Origin: Escherichia coli
GTDB lineage: Bacteria; Pseudomonadota; Gammaproteobacteria; Enterobacterales; Enterobacteriaceae
DNA length: 64,000 nt
Assembly: GCF_003991155.1 (NCBI RefSeq)
Contig: NZ_CP031293.1
Direction: 5' to 3' (one strand)
Shown: in pieces, positions 19,543 to 57,223 of the stretch
Layout: each line of letters opens with the position of its first letter
Numbering within the stretch: the first letter of the stretch is position 1
Position numbers and translations under genes: made by a program
Notes under the pieces: generated by a model
What the model was told of the DNA's origin: nothing
Database searches by the model: none
Seen by the model: the letters and a program-made list of their open reading frames with translations, nothing else

Positions 19543-22500
19543 ATGGCCGACAACTTTACAGCCCGTAAGCACGGACAATGGAAAGTCATCAGCACCAAAC
19601 CGGATGTCTGTAAAACACCACGCGGAGATTCCACACCGCCTGTCCCCTACCCTGTCACAGCCAATATGGCTGAAGCAGTGATGGTGGTGCAGTCGGTGAA
19701 GCTGAACGGCTGCCCGGCAGTGGTCCTAAACCAGAGCACCATCCCTCAGACAAAGGGCGATGCCGCAGGTGCGGCAAAAGGTGTCAGCAGCGGTACAGTG
19801 GGTGATGTCTGCGAGCCGCTGGACCACAGCGAGACAGTATTTTTTGGCGGCAAGCCGATACTGCGTCACCACGATGAGTTCTGGATGAACAGCCGTAACA
19901 CCATCGGCCTAATCGTGGGCCAGCCGCCACCGGCAGGCGTGCCTGCGGAAGAAGCGGACCCGCCGGATGAACCGGAGACGGAAGAAGAGGAAGAAAAGAG
20001 CAGCTGGCTGGACTGGGTGCAGACAGGACTGGATATTGCCGGGTTTGCACCGGGCTTTGGTTTTTTTGCCGATATGCTGAATGCGGGTATCAGCCTGGCG
20101 CGTGGTAATTATGCTGACGCGTTTATGTCTGTGGCGGCCTCACTTCCGGGGATAGGTGATGCGGCAGCGGCTGGCAGGATGGCAGTTAAAGGACGAAAAG
20201 CAGCAAAGGCGGCTAAAGAAGCCGCCGAACGAGCCGCAAAGAAAAAGCTGGAGAAGGAGGCGGCAATGCGCTCCCGTGCGCTGAGAAAAGCCCAGAAGAA
20301 AGCGGCAGCTAAAAAGAAAGGGGGTATCGTTAAGGGGAAAGCGAAAAATAACAAAGGCAAAGGTAAGGGTGCGGAAAGCAGTGATTGTACCAAACCCGGC
20401 GAACCCGTGGACGCCGGAACCGGCGACTTTCTCCAGCACTTCAGCGTTCTTTCCCTTCCCGGCTCACTTCCTCTCACGCTTTCCCGGTTTTACCGTTCTC
20501 AGGCACAACATGGCGGCATCTTTGGTCCCAAATGGACCGATGAATGGTCCGTATCCCTGAAGGTACACACTGACGGCAACCTGCACTTCACTGACGGTGA
20601 AGGGGTGGAACTGTACTACCCCATTCCGCAGGACGGCATTTTTGAGGGTGCAGCGAACTCCCGCCAGGCACACTACCGGCTGACGGGCGACATGAGCGGA
20701 GAACTGTCGTTGTCCGACCGCCGCACACAGCAGACACAGATTTTTTCTCAGGCAGGCACAGGTACTTATTTGCTGTCTGCCCTTCATGACAATTACGGCA
20801 ACCGGATTGATTTTATCCGCACGGACGGCCTGCTGACAGAAATCCGCCACAGCGACGGCTACACGCTCGCGCTTGCCTGGCTACAGCAGCAACTAATGAG
20901 CATTGACCTGGCAACACCGCGGCGTCAGCGCCTTGTCACCTGTCAGTACGATGATAATGGTTATCTGGCAGAGTGCGATACTTTCCAGTTTTCTCATCTG
21001 TGGCATGAATACACGACTGAAGGGTTTATGACCCGCTGGCGGGATACGGATAAAACCTGCGTGGATATCCGTTACGACCCGCAGGGGCGCGCCATCAGCA
21101 CCCTGTCAACCGAAGGCTATTACGACGACCGTTTTATCTATAACGATGAAGAGCACTGTACCACCTACGTGGATGCAGAAGGCGGCGAAACCCGTTACTG
21201 GTATAACGAAGACGGCCTGGTCACCCACAGCACCGACCCGCTGGGCCGTGAAGAGATTACAGTATGGGAAAACACGCAACTTCAGTCGCGCACCGACGCG
21301 CTGGGGCGTAAAACAGCGTATGAATATAACGATGAGGGCGATATCTGGCATGTTGCCCTGCCGGGCGGCTACAGCCTCTATTACGACTACAACGACGCCG
21401 GGCAGTTAACCCGCCTGACCCTGCCGGGCGACCAGGTATGGCTGTGGGACTACGACGATAAGGGCAGCATGGTCTGCCTGACCGACCCGCAGGGCCGGAA
21501 ACAGCAGTTCAGCTACAGCCAACAGGGTGATTTACTGGCGCGGATTATGCCGGGCGGAGCCACCTGGCGCTGGAGCCATGACGCCCTGCACCAGGTGCGC
21601 GAGACCACTGCGCCGGACGGCGGCGTCACGCAGACTGAACAGGATATGCTGGGCCGCCTGCTGAGTGTGAAAGACCCGCTGGGCTTCACCACGCAGTTCC
21701 GCCACAGCAAAACCCACGCTGGGCCGCTGGGCAGCGTGGAAGAAATTAACCGCCCGGATGGCGTGCGGGAACTGATGCGCCAGAACAGTGAAAAGCTGCC
21801 GGAGAGCTTCACCGATGGCGAAGGCAAAACCACCCGCTACGAATATGGTGCATTTGACCTGTTAACGGCAGTTATCCGCCCGGATGGTGAACGGCTGGAG
21901 TGCCGCTACGACAAGCTGACCCGCCTGACCGAAATCACCAACGCGGAAGGTGAGCACTACCGTCTGGAATATGATAAAGCCGGGCAGCTTATCGCGGAAA
22001 CCGACTTCACCGGGCGCACACTGACCTACAGCTACGATGCGGCAGGCCGCTGTACCCGCACCACCTTCCCGGACGGCACTCACCTGAACCGCCGCTACAA
22101 CGTGACCGACCAGGTAACGGACGAGGAAGTCACCCAGGGCGACAGCAACCGTACCCTGAGCGCCACCACCTTCCTCTATGACACGCTGTGCCGCCTGGTG
22201 GAGGCGAAAAACGATGATGCCATCGTTACGTATGAATATGACAGTGCCAGCAGGGTTGTGGCCGAGACAATCAACGGCAGGCGTACAGAATACAGTTACG
22301 ACAATAATCTCGACACAGTTTCACAGCGCACCACCGCAGGCATCACAGAGCACTTCACCCGCAACCTGATGGGCTATCTGACCACCTGGCAGATAGCCGA
22401 CCATGCCCCGCTGACATTTGAACATGACCTGCGCGGCATGGAAACGTCCCGACGCAGCGAGGCCGGGTTTTACCAGACGCTGGCTTACACCCGCACAGGA

Positions 22501-23961
22501 ATGCCAACGAAGCAGAATGCCGGGGACCACCGGGCCGGCTCGGATGAGCGGAATAAAAGCCTGAAGCGCCAGTGGCTGTATGACAAAGCGTATAATCTGA
22601 CCGCAATCGCCGACTCGCTGCGCGGCTCCATGTTCAACACCATCACGGCGAACGACCAGATAAGCCACGCCACCTGGACGGGTGATTCCAGTCAGTTTCC
22701 GCTGTGTGAGGAACTGTTCACTTACGACAAAAACCTGAACATCACCCGCCGCCAGACCCGGGTGAATGACATACTGGAAAGCGAAACGCACCAGCAGAAC
22801 CGGCATGGACGGGTGATATCAAGTGAGCATGAAGGCTGGCGGCACTCAACGCACCGCATCAATCCGCAGACAGGAAAACCGGAAGAAGGGAAATTTGTCC
22901 GGGTGGTGAACGCCCATAACGTCACCTGGAAATACGATGTTAACGGCAGGCTGATACAGAAGCTGGTCGATAAAGGCGGTTACCGACCGCTGGAATGGCG
23001 CTACAGATGGGACGCGCGCAGCCAGCTAACCGGGCTGGAAACCCCGGATGGTGAACGCTGGGAATACAAATACGACCCCTTCGGCAGGCGCATCAGCAAG
23101 CGCTGCACCAACCGCGACAAACCCGGTATGGATTTTCACTGGAATGGCGACCAGTTGACGGAGGAAATTCCGGTCGGCGCTGACAGTAGTCCTGATACTG
23201 AAAACAGCATCCGCTGGATATATGAGCCGGGAAGTTTTACACCGATTGCGCGTTATGAGAAGGGGCAACTGCATTATGCAGTGACGAACACGGTTGGCCG
23301 CGTACAGGAACTGCTGACAGAAAACGGCCTGATAGTCTGGAAAGGCAAGCAGCAGCTATGGGGCCGTGAGGAAGGCAGAAATAAGAAAGATGCGCCCACA
23401 TGCCGGTTACGTTTTCCGGGGCAGTACGAGGATGTGGAATCAGGGTTGTACTATAACCGGTTCCGGTACTATGATTGCGAGACAGGACAATATCTGTGTG
23501 CTGATCCGTCAGGATTGGACGGAGGGATTAATCCATATGGGTATGTGCATAATCCATTAGGGTGGGCAGACCCTTTTGGGCTAGCCAAAAAGAACGCTCA
23601 GAATACAGTTTTCAGATATCTGAGTGCAGACGATCGTATTCGATATGAGAATGGTCAAAGTTTATTACCTAAAGGTGAGTTTGGTTCAATAGTTGAACAT
23701 GTTGATGGAAAAAATACAGGACATATTTCTGCATCGCTTACCAAGTGTGCAGCTAAAATATTTGATTCGGGCAATGGGTATATAGAAATTGATGTTCAAA
23801 AAATTATCGACAGTGGTATATCATTTATTGATCACAAGAATGTTATGCAAGCGGTTCGTCGTAGCGGCTCTTTAACTAACAGGAGAGATGCCGAAAGAGC
23901 ACTAGAAGTTCTCTTCAAAGGTGAAATTCCCTTTGATGCAATTATTCGTCATGTTATATAA
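19543..23961 (+). CDS. rhs: PAAR-like/Rhs repeat effector with variable C-terminal toxin domain
   Basis: 1472 aa; N-terminal PAAR-like region, Lys/Ala-rich linker, YD repeats, core ending in DPSGLDGGINPYGYVHNPLGWADPFGL, then ~125 aa unique C-terminus. Confidence 0.9.
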   Translation: MADNFTARKHGQWKVISTKPDVCKTPRGDSTPPVPYPVTANMAEAVMVVQSVKLNGCPAVVLNQSTIPQTKGDAAGAAKGVSSGTVGDVCEPLDHSETVFFGGKPILRHHDEFWMNSRNTIGLIVGQPPPAGVPAEEADPPDEPETEEEEEKSSWLDWVQTGLDIAGFAPGFGFFADMLNAGISLARGNYADAFMSVAASLPGIGDAAAAGRMAVKGRKAAKAAKEAAERAAKKKLEKEAAMRSRALRKAQKKAAAKKKGGIVKGKAKNNKGKGKGAESSDCTKPGEPVDAGTGDFLQHFSVLSLPGSLPLTLSRFYRSQAQHGGIFGPKWTDEWSVSLKVHTDGNLHFTDGEGVELYYPIPQDGIFEGAANSRQAHYRLTGDMSGELSLSDRRTQQTQIFSQAGTGTYLLSALHDNYGNRIDFIRTDGLLTEIRHSDGYTLALAWLQQQLMSIDLATPRRQRLVTCQYDDNGYLAECDTFQFSHLWHEYTTEGFMTRWRDTDKTCVDIRYDPQGRAISTLSTEGYYDDRFIYNDEEHCTTYVDAEGGETRYWYNEDGLVTHSTDPLGREEITVWENTQLQSRTDALGRKTAYEYNDEGDIWHVALPGGYSLYYDYNDAGQLTRLTLPGDQVWLWDYDDKGSMVCLTDPQGRKQQFSYSQQGDLLARIMPGGATWRWSHDALHQVRETTAPDGGVTQTEQDMLGRLLSVKDPLGFTTQFRHSKTHAGPLGSVEEINRPDGVRELMRQNSEKLPESFTDGEGKTTRYEYGAFDLLTAVIRPDGERLECRYDKLTRLTEITNAEGEHYRLEYDKAGQLIAETDFTGRTLTYSYDAAGRCTRTTFPDGTHLNRRYNVTDQVTDEEVTQGDSNRTLSATTFLYDTLCRLVEAKNDDAIVTYEYDSASRVVAETINGRRTEYSYDNNLDTVSQRTTAGITEHFTRNLMGYLTTWQIADHAPLTFEHDLRGMETSRRSEAGFYQTLAYTRTGMPTKQNAGDHRAGSDERNKSLKRQWLYDKAYNLTAIADSLRGSMFNTITANDQISHATWTGDSSQFPLCEELFTYDKNLNITRRQTRVNDILESETHQQNRHGRVISSEHEGWRHSTHRINPQTGKPEEGKFVRVVNAHNVTWKYDVNGRLIQKLVDKGGYRPLEWRYRWDARSQLTGLETPDGERWEYKYDPFGRRISKRCTNRDKPGMDFHWNGDQLTEEIPVGADSSPDTENSIRWIYEPGSFTPIARYEKGQLHYAVTNTVGRVQELLTENGLIVWKGKQQLWGREEGRNKKDAPTCRLRFPGQYEDVESGLYYNRFRYYDCETGQYLCADPSGLDGGINPYGYVHNPLGWADPFGLAKKNAQNTVFRYLSADDRIRYENGQSLLPKGEFGSIVEHVDGKNTGHISASLTKCAAKIFDSGNGYIEIDVQKIIDSGISFIDHKNVMQAVRRSGSLTNRRDAERALEVLFKGEIPFDAIIRHVI

Positions 23962-38008: not shown

Positions 38009-38084
38009 TCCTCTGTAGTTCAGTCGGTAGAACGGCGGACTGTTAATCCGTATGTCACTGGTTCGAGTCCAGTCAGAGGAGCCA
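38009..38084 (+). tRNA. asnV: tRNA-Asn (anticodon GTT)
   Basis: 76 nt TCCTCTGTAGTTCAGTCGGTAGAACGGCGGACTGTTAATCCGTATGTCACTGGTTCGAGTCCAGTCAGAGGAGCCA; cloverleaf consistent, anticodon GTT at 38042..38044; gene symbol inferred from position next to nac. Confidence 0.9.
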
Positions 38085-38250
38085 AATTTTAGTCTTGAGA
38101 CATCTCTATAAGTCTCAGGATAGTTAAAAAACAAGAACTTATCTTTACCCGGTTGTCTCGCAAGAGGCTGCTGGGTTTCTTGACATCCATAGTTTTTAGG
38201 GGCCTAATCAGGGGCCTCACGGTTCGGTGAGCAAACGGAGCCCCCACGCT

Positions 38251-39513
38251 ATGGCATTAACAGACACCGCTATTCGCAAGACTAAACCCTCTGACAAACC
38301 CTTCAAAATGACGGACAGTTCTGGACTGTACCTGTTGATCAAACCTAACGGCTCAAAACTCTGGTATATGAAGTACCGCATCGACGGCAAAGAGAAGAAA
38401 CTGGCCTTTGGCCCCTACCCGGAGATCTCCCTGTTGCAGGCTCGCCGCCTGCGCGAAACAGCACGCAATAACATTCATGCAGGCGTCGATCCGGCTGCGG
38501 TGAAGCAAACCGAGAAACAGAAGAGGAAAAACGGGCAGACGTTCAGCCAGATCGCCATCAACTGGCATAGCGAGCATAAACGCTGGTCTGAGCATTACGC
38601 GAAAACGGTTATGCGCAGGCTGGAAATGTACGTTTTCCCGGATATCGGGGATCGCCTTATCGAGGAGATCGAAACGGAGGATTTGTTATTCACGTTGCGC
38701 AAGGTAGAGAGTAAAGGCTTTCTGGAAATCACCGCGCGGCTGAAAAACTACGTCACCGATATCATGCACTACGCGATGAAAAAGAAACTGCTCAAAGCGA
38801 ACCCGGCGCTGTATCTGGACGGTGAGTTTGCCGCGCCAGAAACCAGTCACTACCCGGCCCTGTCGCTGGACAAATTGCCTGAGCTTTTAACCCGGACGGA
38901 TAGCTACTGCGGCAGGCTGCTGACAAAATACGCGCTTAAGCTGTCGCTGATTTTTTTTGTGCGCTCCAGCGAACTACGCTTTGCGCGCTGGAGTGAGATC
39001 GACTGGCAGCAGAAGTTATGGATAATCCCGGAAGAGCGCGAACAGATCGAAAACGTGCGCTTCTCTTACCGGGGGTCGAAAATGAAAATCCAGCACATTG
39101 TGCCGCTGTCGGATCAGGCGATTGCGATACTGAAACAGATCGAGGCCCTCTCCGGGCATCTGGCCTTTATTTTTCCCGGCGAATACGACCAGGACAAGTG
39201 CATGAGCGACAACACCGTCAACAAGGCGCTGCGCGTGATGGGTTACGACACCAAAAAGGATATCTGCGGGCATGGCTTCCGGGCAATGGCCTGTAGTGCG
39301 CTGAGCGAATCGGGATTATGGAGCAAAGAAGCCATTGAAAAGCAGATGAGCCACCAGGAAAGAAACAGCGTCCGTGCTGCCTATATTCACAAGGCTGAAT
39401 ATCTGGAGGAACGGATCGAGATGATGCAGTGGTGGTCAGATTATCTTGATGCAAACAGTGACGGGTATGTCTCGGCTTACCAGTATGCCCGCCGCCTAAA
39501 ACAGGCGTCGTAA
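38251..39513 (+). CDS. int: P4-like tyrosine integrase
   Basis: ORF 38227..39513; probable start MALTDTAIRKTKP at 38251; phage-integrase family features; lies directly 3' of the tRNA. Confidence 0.85.
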   Translation: MALTDTAIRKTKPSDKPFKMTDSSGLYLLIKPNGSKLWYMKYRIDGKEKKLAFGPYPEISLLQARRLRETARNNIHAGVDPAAVKQTEKQKRKNGQTFSQIAINWHSEHKRWSEHYAKTVMRRLEMYVFPDIGDRLIEEIETEDLLFTLRKVESKGFLEITARLKNYVTDIMHYAMKKKLLKANPALYLDGEFAAPETSHYPALSLDKLPELLTRTDSYCGRLLTKYALKLSLIFFVRSSELRFARWSEIDWQQKLWIIPEEREQIENVRFSYRGSKMKIQHIVPLSDQAIAILKQIEALSGHLAFIFPGEYDQDKCMSDNTVNKALRVMGYDTKKDICGHGFRAMACSALSESGLWSKEAIEKQMSHQERNSVRAAYIHKAEYLEERIEMMQWWSDYLDANSDGYVSAYQYARRLKQAS

Positions 39514-39636: not shown

Positions 39637-39954
39637 ATGAAAACGATAAAGACCTACATAACTGCCGACGGGCGAGATCTGTATGCAGAGTTTTTTAAAG
39701 GGTTACGCGACCCCATCGCGAAGGCAAAGATCGCTTCCCGGATCAACCGGATGGCTTCGGACAATTTTGGCGACCATAAGCCCTGCCGGGAAGGTGTCTG
39801 GGAACTCAGGATAGATCAAGGGGCTGGGTATCGGGTTTATTACAGCCTGGTGGATGGAGAAGTCGTCCTGTTGATTCTGGCTGGCGACAAGCGTACGCAG
39901 GATGCAGATATAGATGAGGCTATTCGCTGCCTCAAAGACTATTTGAAGAGGTGA
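39637..39954 (+). CDS. RelE/ParE-superfamily toxin, HigB-like
   Basis: 105 aa; 3 nt before the antitoxin-like gene; toxin-first order typical of HigBA. Confidence 0.6.
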   Translation: MKTIKTYITADGRDLYAEFFKGLRDPIAKAKIASRINRMASDNFGDHKPCREGVWELRIDQGAGYRVYYSLVDGEVVLLILAGDKRTQDADIDEAIRCLKDYLKR

Positions 39955-39957
39955 TGT

Positions 39958-40266
39958 ATGGCGAAAGAACGTTTATATGATGATGTCATGGTGGAAGCGC
40001 TCCGGGAAGATCCTGCTTTTGCTCAGGCCTATCTGCATCAGGCATTTCTGGATATGGATGAAGATGGCGGTCAGGAAGCTTTTTTACTCGCGTTACGCCA
40101 TGTTGTTGAAGCGCGGGGAGGAATGGCGACGGTTGCCCAGAAAGCCGGTGTATCGCGTGAATCACTGTACCGCACGCTCTCCCCGACCGGCAACCCGACA
40201 CTGAAAACACTCCGCAGCGTCGTCCACGCCGCAGGTTTTCAGTTCTCTGCGCTGGCAAGTGCCTGA
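39958..40266 (+). CDS. HigA-like antitoxin (HTH)
   Basis: 102 aa; sequence resembles addiction-module antidote proteins (GVSRESLYRTLSPTGNPTLKTL helix-turn-helix region). Confidence 0.6.
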   Translation: MAKERLYDDVMVEALREDPAFAQAYLHQAFLDMDEDGGQEAFLLALRHVVEARGGMATVAQKAGVSRESLYRTLSPTGNPTLKTLRSVVHAAGFQFSALASA

Positions 40267-40388
40267 GTAGTTTTACATTTTGCAGCGATAATATAAATTG
40301 TAAATCATAATCCCTCCGTTGCTCTGTTCTGAGCAACGGATTACTTTGCATATTATCTGCTTTGCTAATCCATCAATTTTTAATTACC

Positions 40389-40682
40389 TTACATGGAAGC
40401 AACATACTCCATTAAATTATCTAATAAAAAATCAACCTTACTTATACCTTCATTTACATTATCGGCATAGATAAGTTCTACGAGCTTCATCCAACTTAAA
40501 TTGGAACGTACATTGTATTGTAAAAGGAGCCACTCTCTAAATCCCTCTAACATTTTACCGTCAAAGGAAAAATCCATCCCTAGTATAAAAGCCACAGTGT
40601 TTTCATAGTTATTTTCAAGTAGATACATATCGATATGCTTCTTAAAAAAAACAATTTTTTTTAGGAGGATATTTTTATTCAT
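40389..40682 (-). CDS. Putative immunity protein for orphan rhs toxin
   Basis: 97 aa, start 3 nt after the toxin stop, AT-rich. Confidence 0.5.
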   Translation of the reverse strand: MNKNILLKKIVFFKKHIDMYLLENNYENTVAFILGMDFSFDGKMLEGFREWLLLQYNVRSNLSWMKLVELIYADNVNEGISKVDFLLDNLMEYVASM

Positions 40683-40684
40683 AA

Positions 40685-41400
40685 TTAAAATCCAAAATTG
40701 ATTGCATCAGGATATTGCCATAACTCTTTATATTCTTGTAATGGTAAACCGTCTGAGCCAGTAAAGGCATCATAAACCCGACCATCTTTTACTACAACGT
40801 CGTGATATGCCCAACCGGGATTCGTGCCTCTGTATTTACCTAATGAAGGAGCTCCGAAATCAGGTCTAATTCTTGCAATATCACCACCGATTTTCTTTTG
40901 TACCCACAATGCAAAATCTTCACAACCATTCCAGTTCTCAGAATTTTTAATATCCGCAGCCTTCCATACACAATCAGCGTTAAGGCCTAATGGATCAATC
41001 CAATTTAACGGATCTTTGACGTAACTGTATGGATTAATACCTCCCAACACCCCGGTTGGATCTGCCGAAATATACTGCGCAGTATCAGGATCATAGTACC
41101 GGAACCGGTTATAGTACAGTCCTGATTCGGCATCTTCATACTGCCCCGGAAAACGCAGGCGGCAGTCAGGTGCATCATCCCTGTTCCTGCCTTCTTCCCG
41201 GCCCCAGAGCTGTTGTTTTCCCCGCCAGACAATGGTGCCGCCCTCGGTCAGCAGTTCCTGGACACGGCCGACCGTATCCGTCACCGCGTAATGCAACAAG
41301 CCTTTCTCATAACGCGCCAGCGGTGTAAAACTTCCCGGTTCGTATATCCAGCGGATGGCGTTTTCATCATCTGGCTTGCCGTCCTGGCTGACCGGAATTT
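40685..41400 (-). CDS. Orphan rhs C-terminal cassette with Cys/His/Asp-containing toxin tip
   Basis: ORF 40685..41299, rhs-core similarity extends to ~41400; DPLGL motif then a unique ~95 aa C-terminus. Confidence 0.7.
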
Positions 41401-41442
41401 CTTGGTTAGATGACCGTCAGTTAAATGGATATTATCATTCCA

Positions 41443-41784
41443 TTAAAAATCGGAATGATCCATATATTCTATATGCTCATCAGAAAGTCCATCTGGATAT
41501 AACTCTCTTGGATAATCACTATCTAAAATTGCTAGGAAGTTATTTATAGTATTTTCCAATGCCTCATCTACTGTTTTTCCCCAGCCAATAGCACCTTCGG
41601 GACAATCATCAAATTTCCGTTTAATCATTACATTTGTAATCCCCATGTAACTCCCATCCTGAGACTCTCGTATTTTTATTTTTACTTTTGCGCTAGGGAT
41701 AACACCAAACATCCAAATTACAAACTCGGCTTCAACTTTCTCTACTTTAGATACACTGCGTATTTTCATTTGATGCCAGCCCAT
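41443..41784 (-). CDS. Putative immunity protein for Rhs2 toxin
   Basis: ATG start MGWHQMKIRSV at 41784 with AGAGGA RBS, 11 nt after the Rhs2 stop. Confidence 0.5.
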   Translation of the reverse strand: MGWHQMKIRSVSKVEKVEAEFVIWMFGVIPSAKVKIKIRESQDGSYMGITNVMIKRKFDDCPEGAIGWGKTVDEALENTINNFLAILDSDYPRELYPDGLSDEHIEYMDHSDF

Positions 41785-41794
41785 ATCTTTTCCT

Positions 41795-44700
41795 CTATAA
41801 ACGACCAAAAGAGACAATTTCCCCTGTATCTACCGCAACATCAATATATCTTCCGTTCTTTCTATATCTCCACACATTTTCAGTATAACCAGAAACTTTG
41901 GTTGGTTTTATTCTTCTCAAGTTCTCAGAAAAAACCTTAGCTTTATTTAGATATTGCTCTACCGTTTCTGCACCAACTTCACGACCATGTTTTCTGAAGT
42001 GCTCCAGTAATGACTCTGCCGGAGTATCCCAACTTCCTTTACTCCATAGTTTTTTACAATTTACTTCTTGCAGGAATGCAAATAATGCCGATAAACCTAA
42101 AGGGTCAATATAACTAAATGGGTTCTGTACATATGAATATGGATTTAATCCCCCAAGTAACCCAATGGGATCTGCCGAAATATACTGCGCCGTATCAGGA
42201 TCATAGTACCTGAACCGGTTATAGTACAGTCCTGATTCCGTATCTTCGTACTGCCCCGGAAAACGCAGGCGGCAGTCAGGCGCATCATCCTTGTTTCTGC
42301 CTTCTTCCCGGCCCCAAAGTTGCTGTTTTCCCCGCCAGACAATCGTGCCGTCTTCGGTCAGCAACTCCTGGACACGACCGACCGTATCCGTCACCGCGTA
42401 ATGCAGCAAGCCTTTCTCATAACGTGCCAGCGGTGTAAAACTTCCCGGTTCATATATCCAGCGAATGGCATTTTCATATTCTGGTTTGCCATCAGTACCA
42501 ACAGGAATTTCTTCGGTTAACTGATCGCCATTCCAGTGGAAATCCATTCCGGACTTATCACGGTTGGTACACCGTTTGCTGATGCGCCTGCCAAACGGGT
42601 CGTATTTATACTCCCAGCGTTCCCCCTCCGGCGTTTCAAGCCCGGTAAGCTGACTTCTGGCATCCCAGCGATAGCGCCATTCGAGCGGACGATAGCCGCC
42701 TTTATCGACCAGTTTCTCCACCAGGCGACCATTAGCATCGTACGTCCAGGTAATATTGTGCTCATTCACCACCCGGACAAATTTTCCCTCTTCCGGCTTT
42801 CCTGTGTCCGGGTTGATGCGGTGTGTCTGATGCCGCCAGCCTTTGTGCTCTCTGGAAACAACTCTTCCATGCCGCAACTGCTGGTGTGTCTCGCTTTCCA
42901 GCACCTCATTTACCCATGTCTGGCGGCGGGCAATATTCAGGTTTTTGTCATAAGTGAACAGTTCCTCACACAGCGGAAACTCCCGGGAATCGCCCGTCCA
43001 GGTGGCATGGCTTACCTGGTCGTTAACCGTCATATTGTTGAAGGCTGATCCCCGCAGCGAGTCTGATATTACCGTCAGGTTGTACGCCTTGTCATACAGC
43101 CACTGGCGCTCCAGGCTTTTGTTCCGTTCGTACGGCCCGGCCTGGTGGTCCCCGGCATTCTGCTTCGCTGGCATCCCTGTGCGCGTGTATGCCAGCGTCT
43201 GGTAAAACCCGGCCTCGCTCCGCCTGGACGTTTCCAGGCCGCGCAGGTCGTGCTCAAATGTCAGCGGGGCATGGTCCGCTATCTGCCAGGATGCCAGATG
43301 CCCCATCAGGTTTCGGGTAAAGCGTTCTGTGATACCTGCTGTGGTGCGCTGTGTGACCGTATCCAGGTCAGGGTCGTAACGGTATTCTGTGCGCCTGCCG
43401 TTCAGCGTTTCGGCAACAATCTGGTTTGCATCGTTATATTCAAATGTAACGGTGGCATCGTCATTCTTCGCTTCCACCAGACGACGCTGCGTGTCGTAAC
43501 GAAATGTGGTGACACTCAGAGTTCGGTCACTGTTGCCCTGTGTGACTTCCTCGTCCGTCACCTGGTCATTCACGTTGTAGCGGCGGTTAAGGTGAGTGCC
43601 GTCCGGGAAGCTGGTGCGAATACAACGCCCGACGGCATCGTAGGTGTAGTTCAGCGTGCGTCCGGTGAAGTCTGTTTCTGCTACAAGCTGCCCGGCTTTA
43701 TCATATTTAAGACGGTAGCGCTCGCCTTCGGCGTTGGTAATTTCGGTCAGGCGGGTCAGTTTATCGTAGCGACACGCCAGCCGCTCGCCGTCAGGACGCA
43801 CCAGAGCCGTGAGCAGATCGAATGCACCGTATTCGTAACGGGTGGTTTTGCCCTCGCCATCGGTAAAGCTTTCCGGTAGCTTTTCGCTGTTCTGGCGCAT
43901 CAGTTCCCGCACGCCGTCCGGGCGCTGGATTTCTTCCACGCAGCCCTGTGGCCCGGCGTGGATTTTGCTGTGACGAAACTGCGTGGTGAAGCCAAGTGGG
44001 TCTTTCACACTTAACAGTCGGCCCAGCATATCCTGTTCGGTCTGCGTGATGCCGCCGTCTGGCGCAACAGTCTCGCGCACCTGATGCAGGGCGTCATGAC
44101 TCCAGCACCAGGTGGCCCCGCCCGGCAGAATCCGTGCAAGCAAATCACCCTGTTCACTGTAGCTGAACTGCTGTTTCCGGCCCTGAGGGTCGATCAGGCT
44201 GATTATGCTGCCCCGATCATCATAGACCCATTGCCACGCCTGATTATCAGTTGTCGACAGCCGGGTTAACTGACCGGTATCATTATACTCGTAGAACAGG
44301 CCATAGCCGCCCGGCAGGGCAACCTGGATAACCTCACCTTCCCGGTTATAGCGGTACGCCGTGGTACGCCCCAGCGCATCGGTGCGTGACTGAAGCCGGG
44401 CATTATTCCAGACGGTAATTTCTTCCCGCCCCAGCGGATCGATACAGCGGGTGACCAGGCCGTCCTCGTTATACCAGTAACGGGTTTCGCCCCCTTCTGC
44501 ATCCAGGTAGGTGGTGCATTTTTCATCATCGTTATAGATAAAGCGGTCATCGAAGTAGCCTTCCGTTGACAGTGTGCTGACAGCGCGCCCCTGCGGATCA
44601 TAGCGGATATCCACACAGGTTTTGTCCGTATCCCGCCAGCGGGTCATAAAGCCTTCTGATGTGTACTCATGCCATAAATGCGAGAACTGGAAGGTATCGC

Positions 44701-45985
44701 ATTCTGCCATAAAACCATTGTCATCATACTGGCAGGTCACAAGACGCTGACGCTGCGGCGTTGCCAGGTCAATGCTCATCAGCTGAGCCTGTTGCCAGGC
44801 AAGGGCGAGCATATAGCCATCGCTGTGACGGATTTCTGTCAGCAGACCATCAGTGCGGATAAAATCAATCCGGTTGCCATAATTATCGAAGACAGCGGAC
44901 AACCGCCAGACGCCATTGCCTGCCGGGGAAAAGAGCTGTGTCTGCTGCGAACGGCGATCGAAAACGCTCACGCCATCGCGCAGGCTTCCCGTCAGCCGGT
45001 AGTACGCCTGGCGTGAGTTCACTGCACCGCGAAAGATACCGTCCTGCGGCAGGCGGTAATACAGTACAACGCCTTCACTGTCGGTAAAATGCAGCCGGTT
45101 ACCCTGTATCGTCAGCGACGCTGACCACTCATCGGTCCATTTCGGGCCGAAAATCCCGGTCCCCCTGGCCTGTGAGCGGTAAAAACGCGAGAGCGTCAGC
45201 GGCAGGGAACCCGGCAGCGAAAGCACGCTGAAATGCTGGAGAAAATCGCCGGTGCCAATATCCACAGGCTCACCGGGTTTGGTGCACAACTGAGCACCAA
45301 CACATTTACTCTGATCACCAGTTCCCTCGGTTTCACCTTTAATATTTGCGCCATCCTGGCCTTCGGGTATGACATCATCCGCCAACTTTTCTGCGTCACT
45401 GACAACATCGTCTGCTTTGTTTACCTTCAGCAGATCGGCGGTGAATTTCCCCGCCGCTGCTTCTTCTCGTGCCAGTTTACTGGCAGTCCGCATCGCTCTA
45501 AGACCCACGAACCCGCCTCGGGCCAGACCATATCCTCCCAGCGCCAGCGAGCCATGGTCATAAATCATGCCGCCAATTTCCTGGTTCCTGTTGCTCATTT
45601 CCAGACGGTACATGTCCAGATTGAAATCTCCCGCATGCTCCCGGAGATCTCCGCCCATGTTGTACATATCCTCGCCAATATCATCCATGCCCATCGCAGA
45701 AAGCATGGCGCCGTTCATCTGCATTTCTCCGGCATACTGCATGGTGGCCCCCTGGCCTATCATCGTCGCCATATCCGGGAACTGGTTCCAGAATGCTTTG
45801 GCAGCACCAATAGCCAAATCAAGCTGGACTGCCGAAGCTTCAATTTTCGCCCGACTTTCATCCATCTGGATCATCAACATCATGTCCCAGATACTTTGCT
45901 CTTCTTTTGTTTCTGGCTCTGGCGCAGGGTCAGCTTCGCTGGCGGAAATAGCGGCTTCAGGGGGCTGACCGATAATTAAACCCGT
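41795..45985 (-). CDS. rhs: Rhs repeat effector 2, 5'-truncated by the IS3-family element
   Basis: ORF 41795..45883; frame stays open upstream to the IS end (~45985) and encodes ...GLIIGQPPEAAISASEADPAPEPETKEE, matching the linker after the PAAR domain of Rhs1; YD repeats; DPIGLLGGLNPYSYVQNPFSYIDPLGL then a unique C-terminus. Confidence 0.85.
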   Translation of the reverse strand, partial: TGLIIGQPPEAAISASEADPAPEPETKEEQSIWDMMLMIQMDESRAKIEASAVQLDLAIGAAKAFWNQFPDMATMIGQGATMQYAGEMQMNGAMLSAMGMDDIGEDMYNMGGDLREHAGDFNLDMYRLEMSNRNQEIGGMIYDHGSLALGGYGLARGGFVGLRAMRTASKLAREEAAAGKFTADLLKVNKADDVVSDAEKLADDVIPEGQDGANIKGETEGTGDQSKCVGAQLCTKPGEPVDIGTGDFLQHFSVLSLPGSLPLTLSRFYRSQARGTGIFGPKWTDEWSASLTIQGNRLHFTDSEGVVLYYRLPQDGIFRGAVNSRQAYYRLTGSLRDGVSVFDRRSQQTQLFSPAGNGVWRLSAVFDNYGNRIDFIRTDGLLTEIRHSDGYMLALAWQQAQLMSIDLATPQRQRLVTCQYDDNGFMAECDTFQFSHLWHEYTSEGFMTRWRDTDKTCVDIRYDPQGRAVSTLSTEGYFDDRFIYNDDEKCTTYLDAEGGETRYWYNEDGLVTRCIDPLGREEITVWNNARLQSRTDALGRTTAYRYNREGEVIQVALPGGYGLFYEYNDTGQLTRLSTTDNQAWQWVYDDRGSIISLIDPQGRKQQFSYSEQGDLLARILPGGATWCWSHDALHQVRETVAPDGGITQTEQDMLGRLLSVKDPLGFTTQFRHSKIHAGPQGCVEEIQRPDGVRELMRQNSEKLPESFTDGEGKTTRYEYGAFDLLTALVRPDGERLACRYDKLTRLTEITNAEGERYRLKYDKAGQLVAETDFTGRTLNYTYDAVGRCIRTSFPDGTHLNRRYNVNDQVTDEEVTQGNSDRTLSVTTFRYDTQRRLVEAKNDDATVTFEYNDANQIVAETLNGRRTEYRYDPDLDTVTQRTTAGITERFTRNLMGHLASWQIADHAPLTFEHDLRGLETSRRSEAGFYQTLAYTRTGMPAKQNAGDHQAGPYERNKSLERQWLYDKAYNLTVISDSLRGSAFNNMTVNDQVSHATWTGDSREFPLCEELFTYDKNLNIARRQTWVNEVLESETHQQLRHGRVVSREHKGWRHQTHRINPDTGKPEEGKFVRVVNEHNITWTYDANGRLVEKLVDKGGYRPLEWRYRWDARSQLTGLETPEGERWEYKYDPFGRRISKRCTNRDKSGMDFHWNGDQLTEEIPVGTDGKPEYENAIRWIYEPGSFTPLARYEKGLLHYAVTDTVGRVQELLTEDGTIVWRGKQQLWGREEGRNKDDAPDCRLRFPGQYEDTESGLYYNRFRYYDPDTAQYISADPIGLLGGLNPYSYVQNPFSYIDPLGLSALFAFLQEVNCKKLWSKGSWDTPAESLLEHFRKHGREVGAETVEQYLNKAKVFSENLRRIKPTKVSGYTENVWRYRKNGRYIDVAVDTGEIVSFGRL

Positions 45986-45992
45986 CGTATTA

Positions 45993-47244
<1,252 letters not shown>

Positions 47245-47493
47245 CCACTACACATAGCAAGGGGAAAAGGTGGATGGGAGCCAACTAAGTTACAAAATTT
47301 TGATCCTGAATTTGGCAGAAAACTACAAGCAATAAATAACGCGTTAAGGAATGGACGGATAGAATTTGCTCATGCACAGGTTTTTTTACGCAATGATGGC
47401 TCTGTTAATGCTGCAGTAGGCATTGGTAGCGGAATACAGTGGAATACCTGGTAATAATAGTATGTGTATATAACGAATAAAGGAGTCCATTTT

Positions 47494-48426
47494 ATGGCAG
47501 CAAGCAAAACAAAAAACAGACTGGAAAAAATGCTTCCTCGCGTTTATAGCTGGGCACAGAGCGGCAGCCAATCAGTAACCGCCCCTGAGTTTAACTATAT
47601 GGAACAATATATTAATGGTCAATCTGAACTTTTCATGGCATTAATTCATTTATATGGACTTGGCATGAGTGAAGCTGCATTAAGCTTACTGGAAGCCAAA
47701 CAGTCTATGGCTTCTTCTGTTATCCATATGAGTTATGGATTCTCTCGAATGCTTCATTCTGATGGCATTAATATATTGAGTTTAAAAGAAAGCAAGGCAA
47801 CTATTACTTCAGGCTTGGATTTCGTCACACATAGTATGCTTGGAGCAATTGCGCTGGGTATGCCCGCTCTGACGAAAAAATTTCACCAGATTGTTTTTAC
47901 TGCTCTTGAGAAAGGGTATGGCATTGTAAATGCGCATGAAGATCCTGGCCCAGAAACTTTACGCTATGCTGCTATGGGACTTTCCATCATTAATGACTGG
48001 CTACAGATCCCCCTGGATTTAGATAAGCTGGGACTGCCACGCGATCCGGCCTGGGGGCTTCTGGTCAAACACTGGAATAACCCTGATCCCGTTAAATTAC
48101 AATCGGTTCTGTATGATGCCTGTGATATCCATATAGAACGTATCGCGTTAACAGAACGTGAAGTTTATACCGGTAACTTTGAATTTGGCTCTCCGTTTGA
48201 AGCCGTTCACCCAACAGAGATTCTGGCGGTATTGCGCCTGAGAGACATGCTGAATCTGCCCAATCCGACATTAGACCATCCGCTGATGAACACACCTTAT
48301 GCCCAAATCACCACCACTCCGGGCCAGGTCACTCAGCCGGACAGTCTGCTAGAAACCTTTCTGGCTAAGGCCCGTGAACGGGATCCAGAGGTCATGGCCG
48401 AATGGGATCGGGTTCAGGTGGATTAA
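47494..48426 (+). CDS. Hypothetical protein (possible immunity or adaptor)
   Basis: ORF 47464..48426; probable start MAASKTKNRLEK at 47494 with AAAGGAG RBS; no family recognised. Confidence 0.5.
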   Translation: MAASKTKNRLEKMLPRVYSWAQSGSQSVTAPEFNYMEQYINGQSELFMALIHLYGLGMSEAALSLLEAKQSMASSVIHMSYGFSRMLHSDGINILSLKESKATITSGLDFVTHSMLGAIALGMPALTKKFHQIVFTALEKGYGIVNAHEDPGPETLRYAAMGLSIINDWLQIPLDLDKLGLPRDPAWGLLVKHWNNPDPVKLQSVLYDACDIHIERIALTEREVYTGNFEFGSPFEAVHPTEILAVLRLRDMLNLPNPTLDHPLMNTPYAQITTTPGQVTQPDSLLETFLAKARERDPEVMAEWDRVQVD

Positions 48427-48930: not shown

Positions 48931-49243
48931 AATTCTAAAAATTCGCTTTTTTAGCGCAATATCACTGACCTTAGTTGAGCATTGCTTTTTAATGGATAGC
49001 GGGTTTTTGACATCTTAAGCGCCCTCGACCTTTATGGTTGAGGGCGTTTTGCTATGAACGCCATCACCATTTTCCCCTCGATTATAAAACTTGAGTAATT
49101 CAGTAGTCTCCCCTCTTGCAACTCACACCCAAAACTGCTTAACGAAAAGTTATTAATTTTCAATCATATTGCTATCAGGATTTATATTTTTTCGCTGTGC
49201 TAGAAAGGGCGCATTTATGTTAGCTCGTTCAGGGAAGGTAAGC

Positions 49244-57223
<7,980 letters not shown>

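Follow-up and report, generated by a model that had tools for sequence, protein, structure and literature searches.

A probably silent orphan rhs cassette of Escherichia coli carrying a putative minimal papain-superfamily toxin tip and its immunity gene

The stretch of Escherichia coli DNA analysed here (64,000 nucleotides (nt) of contig NZ_CP031293.1, RefSeq assembly GCF_003991155.1; hereafter the window) is chromosomal and carries, on the minus strand of an island next to a tRNA-Asn gene, a fragment of an rhs gene that ends in a toxin-like tip and is followed by a small gene (Table 1). This region is 100% identical to that of E. coli strain AR Bank #0349 and of many other strains. A stop-free frame (40685–41416, minus strand) translates to the end of an Rhs core (...YNRFRYYDPDTAQYISADP...NWIDPLGL) and then to the tip (NADCVWKAADIKNSENWNGCEDFALWV...WAYHDVVVKDGRVYDAF...INFGF). 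As stops lie just upstream of this frame (41417–41437), the rhs fragment is a 5'-truncated orphan, and so the orphan C-terminal rhs fragment (rhs-CT) proposed in an earlier, sequence-only reading of this DNA is confirmed, with a core remnant running to DPLGL and a tip of 98 residues. Both TIGR03696 (E 5e-25) and Pfam RHS recognise the remnant; in the full RHS-core model NF041261 it covers only positions 1158–1261 of 1261 (the last 104), the N-terminal YD-repeat shell being missing. The G+C content is 53% in the remnant and 55% in the core of the main rhs gene; the tip has 40% and the downstream gene 30%, a drop that is the classic Rhs pattern. The NCBI annotation pipeline (PGAP) assigns an internal TTG start to the frame, giving a predicted product of 204 residues, of which the tip makes up residues 107–204. 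We think it likely that the region represents a silent orphan Rhs toxin/immunity cassette within a tRNA-Asn island.

A word-indexed search returned 17 relatives of the tip, and an exhaustive profile search 478 clusters at 50% identity, which span Gram-negative and Gram-positive phyla. Of the 150 matches listed, nearly all have the domain at their very C-terminal end, a few with short C-terminal tails, and the carriers identified by profile scans are PT-HINT, RHS, YD-shell, TPS, SpvB/TcdB, PT-TG, ALF and ricin. In an alignment of 111 sequences (37–83% identical to the tip), Cys20 (codon 40922–40924) is retained in 110, His60 (40802–40804) in all 111 and Asp71 (40769–40771) in 109, embedded in the family consensus [NST]GCE ... 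WxYH[ED]VVV ... VYDAFTG, while a second Cys of the tip, at residue 4, is not conserved. The sequence-only reading had noticed a Cys, a His about 40 residues further on and nearby Asp residues; these observations hold, as His60 follows Cys20 by exactly 40 residues and Asp71 follows His60 by 11. To judge from the alignment, such a Cys/His/Asp pattern is far beyond chance.

No toxin model of Pfam-A or NCBIfam matches the tip or any of 174 family proteins scanned, in which carrier domains alone were recognised. A PADLOC scan returned nothing, and a PHROGs scan only short, weak matches to families of unknown function. When the sequence profile of the family was compared with the PDB, the matches were those expected by chance (ribosomal L13, a Legionella effector), and literature searches for experimental work on the family turned up none. 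On these comparisons the tip is a predicted member of a widespread, experimentally uncharacterised polymorphic-toxin family outside Pfam-A and NCBIfam.

The named families with the same role are Tox-PL1 (PF15644, Gln_amidase) and Tox-PL-2 (PF15643), C-terminal papain-fold toxins with Cys, His and Asp on RHS, HINT or TcdB carriers. Their published signatures, NC-H-DxQ for Tox-PL1 and C-NxxH-DN for Tox-PL-2 (Zhang et al. 2012, PMC3482391), differ from the GCE...WxYH...YDAF of the present family. Membership in either was rejected, as neither model matched the tip, 62 long or 111 short family members at E<=0.1 and the signatures are absent as well; precomputed Pfam annotations of family members are likewise empty. 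One set of observations may weigh against full novelty. A Foldseek search of AFDB50 retrieves the toxin family, of which the members A0A936MI11 and A0AAU4IVF3 bear the name “Tox-PL domain-containing protein”. The search also returns, as a weak neighbour of the tip (E 5e-3, template modelling score 0.59), a “Tox-PL-2 domain-containing protein”. These automatic names are not reproduced by any domain call, and a Polyangiaceae protein of 276 residues, probably identical to one of the AFDB50 entries named Tox-PL, had no Pfam match even at E<=10; the names may nevertheless count against the family being entirely new.

AlphaFold2, run on the 111-sequence alignment, produced a model with a predicted local distance difference test score (pLDDT) of 96.5 and a predicted template modelling score (pTM) of 0.87. 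In this model a helix (residues 20–31) begins at Cys20 and strands occupy residues 34–40, 60–65 (from His60) and 68–70, the last followed by Asp71, and an earlier, weaker structure model had the same arrangement. As modelled, this is the canonical arrangement of the papain superfamily, and structural similarity to solved members of that superfamily was found. Structure prediction, which had been suggested as a check on the fold, has thus returned a papain-type arrangement and no non-papain fold. In the structural ranking, deamidase- and transglutaminase-like folds stand above every NlpC/P60 match. A published classification of papain-like enzymes distinguishes a “cluster III”, consisting mostly of deamidases and transglutaminases, from the cluster that holds NlpC/P60, CHAP and amidases (PMC10318531), and nearly all of the best structural matches of the tip fall in cluster III of that scheme. 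The modelled domain accordingly groups with the deamidase/transglutaminase-like branch of the papain superfamily, not with the NlpC/P60 amidase branch.

In NTAQ1, an N-terminal glutamine amidohydrolase, each of the three catalytic positions shows a motif-level echo of the tip that was spotted by eye (C-E, W-x-Y-H-x-V and [IV]-Y-D). An hhalign comparison of the toxin family with NTAQ1 (PF09764) gave a probability of 1.2% with 11 columns aligned, and there was no Pfam match. The relation we propose is one of putative fold-level similarity, not of family membership.

The second half of the cassette is the gene of 97 codons that starts 3 nt past the toxin stop. An immunity-like open reading frame (ORF) had been proposed at this place, and the proposal is strengthened by the neighbourhoods of other family members: of 24 loci with a toxin homologue, 23 have a homologue of this gene as the next one downstream and in the same orientation. 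The hidden Markov models used for this purpose were built from 4 and then 25 members, and 20 of the 23 positive loci are independent of model building. The loci are those of Salmonella, Cellvibrio, an alphaproteobacterium, Polyangiaceae, Myxococcus, Sorangium, Planctomycetota, Cellulomonas, Saccharothrix, Nonomuraea and several Streptomyces. BLASTP with the E. coli protein reached distant family members at E 2e-9 and 1e-4, and the family has a conserved core, ...AF[IV]xG[FY][DN]...GFREWL.... A Pfam scan showed that it is not Imm35 or Imm73, and no immunity family of Pfam-A or NCBIfam was matched. None of 25 aligned proteins, including those of Gram-positive actinobacteria, has a signal peptide, a lipobox or a transmembrane segment. 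Taken together, sequence and gene order identify the ORF as the probable cognate immunity protein, located in the cytoplasm. Among the actinobacteria, two Streptomyces loci have two ORFs with the toxin domain and/or a tandem of two to four ORFs of the immunity family, which suggests local duplication or immunity arrays.

These results bear on the function that had originally been proposed for the tip, namely a papain- or NlpC/P60-like amidase effector of a type VI secretion system (T6SS); in its NlpC/P60- or Tae-like form, this effector would attack peptidoglycan from the periplasm. The papain fold itself is supported by the AlphaFold2 model. The likeness to NlpC/P60 amidases is not: the NLPC_P60, CHAP and amidase models of Pfam find no match among the 174 family proteins scanned, NlpC/P60 structures rank below the deamidase/transglutaminase-like folds, and all 25 immunity proteins are devoid of signal peptide and lipobox, whereas Tai-type immunity proteins are periplasmic. 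In addition, the Rhs tips characterised so far act mostly in the cytoplasm. This usual site of action and the lack of export signals on the immunity proteins point to a target that is conserved and lies in the cytoplasm. They speak against an amidase acting on peptidoglycan in the periplasm, which we consider highly improbable.

What this target may be is suggested by the N-terminus of the immunity protein, which in most lineages contains ...[VL]LExV[RK][KR][RH]PGMY..., resembling the GyrB/ParE signature LExVRKRPGMY (compared segment: residues 16–27 of E. coli GyrB, LDAVRKRPGMYI). In the E. coli copy studied here the motif is degenerate (VFFKKHIDMYLL), its end reading KKHIDMY, as it is in Salmonella (RTHIDMY). 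A profile of the first 34 residues, made from 41 natural immunity proteins, was compared with the PDB (177,635 distinct sequences, with E values that are database-wide); 56 of the 58 matches at E<=10 were GyrB or ParE, the best of them (E 0.002) aligning “LenVRkrPGMYg” with “LEAVRKRPGMYI”. When the immunity alignment was compared by hhalign with residues 1–120 of E. coli GyrB, the same region was placed together (18 columns, probability 76%, E 2e-5). GyrB was not retrieved by whole-length immunity profiles or by single sequences, and with natural immunity N-termini of 61 residues it was absent from the PDB matches or not significant; two natural 24-mers had a GyrB as their top PDB match, but at an E of about 1. 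A self-composed 23-mer matched only GyrB/ParE; it is biased by the choice of residues and was not counted as evidence. On these comparisons the likeness of the motif is both real and specific; at the same time it is short, and it was chosen after the fact.

There is a precedent in the unrelated toxin Cpe1 (papain-fold, C39-like), which cleaves GyrB/ParE in the ATPase domain and whose immunity protein competes with the substrate (PMC12136450). The tip might specifically attack the N-terminal ATPase region of GyrB/ParE, by cleavage or deamidation, and the immunity protein might serve as a substrate decoy. This would be a sharper version of our preferred explanation, a papain-superfamily thiol enzyme with a cytoplasmic protein target, and not an alternative to the fold assignment. 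It is in keeping with the profile and hhalign matches and with the preservation of the motif in the immunity proteins of Myxococcota, Planctomycetota and Actinobacteria. Against it stand the shortness of the similarity (12–18 residues), the failure of whole-length profiles and single sequences to find GyrB, the selection of the N-terminal segment after the motif had been noticed, and the degeneration of the motif in the E. coli and Salmonella copies. Moreover, the motif has no Gln or Asn, so that a deamidase would need another site. GyrB/ParE is thus a candidate target suggested by a short immunity motif, and we propose the gyrase/decoy version tentatively, rating it as distinctly less probable than not. 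In its full form, which we advance with the same reserve, the immunity family would be a mimic or captured fragment of the GyrB/ParE LExVRKRPGMY segment that acts as a decoy, and the toxin would belong to a second papain-fold lineage of interbacterial toxins that disables type IIA topoisomerases, independent in evolution of Cpe1.

The same motif has a bearing on another explanation, by which the tip would be a small-molecule amidase or acyltransferase acting on a metabolite such as a gamma-glutamyl compound, an acyl-CoA or an acyl-ACP. Structural matches of that kind do occur, but they rank below protein-directed deamidases. With its roughly 95 residues the domain is very small and has no obvious cofactor or ligand pocket elements, and the GyrB-like motif of the immunity protein points to a protein substrate. 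We regard action on a metabolite as improbable.

Whether the toxin can be deployed depends on its surroundings. The cassette lies downstream of a resident rhs gene of full-length type, from which it is separated by a further ORF (Table 1). The DNA of the core remnant is about 85–87% identical to the 3' core of this gene (42092–42550) over about 420–450 nt and serves as a homology arm for recombination with full-length rhs; the resident gene could be one into which the orphan tip recombines. Its product shares 79% identity in the core with the PAAR-Rhs of the T6SS cluster in the window, of which it lacks the first ~280 residues. A remnant of the PAAR-Rhs linker (…NTTGLIIGQPPEAA…) is found just upstream of the resident rhs (in the region 45884–47600, minus strand) and, beyond it, an IS3 insertion sequence (about 46067–47244) abuts a truncated DUF2169 adaptor gene. 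The PAAR-like N-terminus of the resident rhs has been lost to the IS3 insertion. With the PAAR-like domain gone and IS3 next to the truncated DUF2169 gene, the delivery module of the island is broken. The resident gene has an unrelated tip of its own (…DPLGLSALFAFLQEVNCKKLW…VSFGRL, ~98 residues; 41795–42095, minus strand). Neither this tip nor the ORF downstream of it, labelled hypothetical in the annotation of an identical E. coli record, matched an NCBIfam family; the two form a second uncharacterised toxin/immunity pair.

A promoter scan of the cassette found 6 promoter-like sites where 5.4 were expected from a shuffled background, which is no enrichment. This, and the lack of a PAAR-like N-terminus in the resident rhs, make it probable that the toxin is silent in this strain and that its deployment would require recombination onto a deliverable Rhs. 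Of 5426 complete E. coli genomes, 33 contain the tip and immunity DNA, in copies that are all at least 99% identical, and in none of the 5426 was the tip found on a full-length rhs. Its orphan position and the island that holds it are the same in the contexts sampled (AR Bank #0349, H27 and H28). The Salmonella homologue is also an orphan, and resides within an array of toxin/immunity remnants; there, the immunity homologue was found on 78 contigs, and the toxin homologue, which is rare, is in some cases a truncated form of 56–74 residues, a pattern consistent with immunity genes that outlive their toxins.

The cassette could thus be an evolutionary relic, with a toxin that is never made and an immunity gene that matters, if at all, by guarding against attackers with the same tip. 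We find this evenly balanced. The Rhs frame has no start codon and its promoter-like sites are at the level of shuffled sequence, the adjacent rhs has lost its PAAR through IS3, the orphan position is shared across the E. coli carriers of the tip, and the immunity homologue far outnumbers the toxin homologue in Salmonella. On the other hand, the toxin ORF is intact with all of its catalytic residues present, a stretch of about 420 nt of homologous core, about 85% identical, is still there for recombination, and the internal TTG start assigned by PGAP would provide a product. Furthermore, activation of orphan Rhs tips by recombination has been documented in Salmonella (Koskiniemi et al. 2014, as cited in PMC12994826). 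A relic is compatible with our best explanation as far as the identity of the domain is concerned.

Of the explanations considered, we favour, with good though not complete confidence, a silent orphan cassette that combines a minimal papain-superfamily thiol-enzyme tip, directed at a cytoplasmic protein, with an immunity protein of 97 residues. What the analysis demonstrates is the anatomy of the cassette, how well the triad is conserved, the class of fold, the range of carriers, the preserved gene order of toxin and immunity protein and the lack of export signals on the latter. We infer the present silence of the cassette as well as an enzymatic activity, a type of reaction and a target, as follows. 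Recombination would move the tip onto a deliverable Rhs, for example the PAAR-Rhs of the T6SS cluster, and the Rhs shell and T6SS would then carry it into the cytoplasm of a neighbouring cell. Once there, the tip may act as a thiol enzyme on some conserved protein of the cytoplasm and hydrolyse one of its amide bonds, through deamidation of a Gln or Asn side chain or through cleavage of a peptide bond. The immunity protein would block the toxin by direct binding.

The wider setting is that of an integrated island, as an integrase gene and a toxin/antidote pair are located next to the tRNA-Asn gene (Table 1). In the order of transcription, its minus-strand elements are the DUF2169 fragment, IS3, the resident rhs, the immunity ORF of the latter and the orphan cassette. 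A hairpin with a stem of 10 bp (40315–40340) lies between the convergent toxin/antidote and immunity genes. A complete T6SS cluster occupies positions 1–24000 of the window, with tssM to tssB on the minus strand, and hcp, vgrG, a DUF2169 gene and the gene for the PAAR-Rhs (1472 residues; 19543–23961) on the plus strand. After the cluster come orphan rhs fragments, insertion sequence elements, cbl and nac; rhs fragments with immunity genes, one of these encoding an imm11-family protein, are found at ~24.8–28.9 kb. An inverse autotransporter adhesin of 2684 residues with an IatC/intimin-like N-terminus (E=0) is encoded at 49169–57223 on the plus strand, with a shikimate transporter gene and AMP nucleosidase and YebC-family genes 3' of it. 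Across this stretch strain AR Bank #0349 differs, having a second tRNA-Asn gene, yeeO and cob/pdu genes.

Table 1. Positions in the window of the orphan rhs cassette and of features in the surrounding island.
Feature	Position	Strand	Remarks
tRNA-Asn	38009–38084		precedes the island
Tyrosine integrase	38227–39513		after tRNA-Asn
RelE/ParE-type toxin and antidote pair	39637–40266		after the integrase
Cognate immunity gene	40389–40682	minus	97 residues; G+C 30%
Toxin tip	40685–40981	minus	98 codons and stop; predicted minimal papain-fold domain, candidate triad Cys20/His60/Asp71
Rhs core remnant	40982–41416	minus	145 codons, no start codon; ends in NWIDPLGL (PxxxxDPxGL-type boundary motif)
Immunity-type ORF of the resident rhs tip	41443–41784	minus	lies between the resident rhs and the orphan cassette
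Full-length-type (resident) rhs	41795–45883	minus	1362 residues, own unrelated C-terminal tip

Papain-fold tips on polymorphic toxins are already known, and the fold itself is therefore unsurprising. The present family, however, is large, occurs on at least seven types of carrier and goes unseen by Pfam and NCBIfam. With about 95 residues its domain would rank among the smallest complete papain-fold enzymes with Cys, His and Asp, and is therefore an attractive subject for studies of structure and mechanism. In its GyrB/ParE signature the immunity protein offers a concrete target hypothesis that can be tested cheaply; if it is true, unrelated thiol toxins would recurrently be aimed at the ATPase domains of gyrase and topoisomerase IV, and immunity of the decoy type would amount to target mimicry. 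For E. coli, the cassette may represent a spare “warhead” for the contact-killing Rhs toxin.

Several known systems share features with this cassette. The T6SS amidase effectors Tae1–4 and the NlpC/P60 proteins have the papain superfamily, a small size and an association with T6SS in common with the tip. Among the systems closest to it are NTAQ1 (PDB 3c9q and 4w79) and the bacterial protein-glutaminases (2zk9, 3a54, 8z3i); the toxin differs from these in being half the size, in its C-terminal position on secretion carriers and in having a dedicated immunity protein. The Cpe1-Cpi1 pair is similar in that an interbacterial papain-superfamily toxin, acting in the cytoplasm and borne by Rhs or CdiA carriers, is matched by a small cytoplasmic immunity protein. 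A C39/ComA-like peptidase domain of the Cpe1 type was not found in the tip, and the class of target may be shared if the GyrB-like immunity motif is meaningful. The closest resemblance in architecture is to the orphan rhs-CT/immunity modules described in Salmonella and E. coli (Koskiniemi et al. 2014). In these, too, a core remnant that runs to DPxGL is joined to a tip rich in A+T and followed by an immunity gene, the whole being situated downstream of a full-length rhs; compared with these modules the architecture is identical, and the tip family alone is new.
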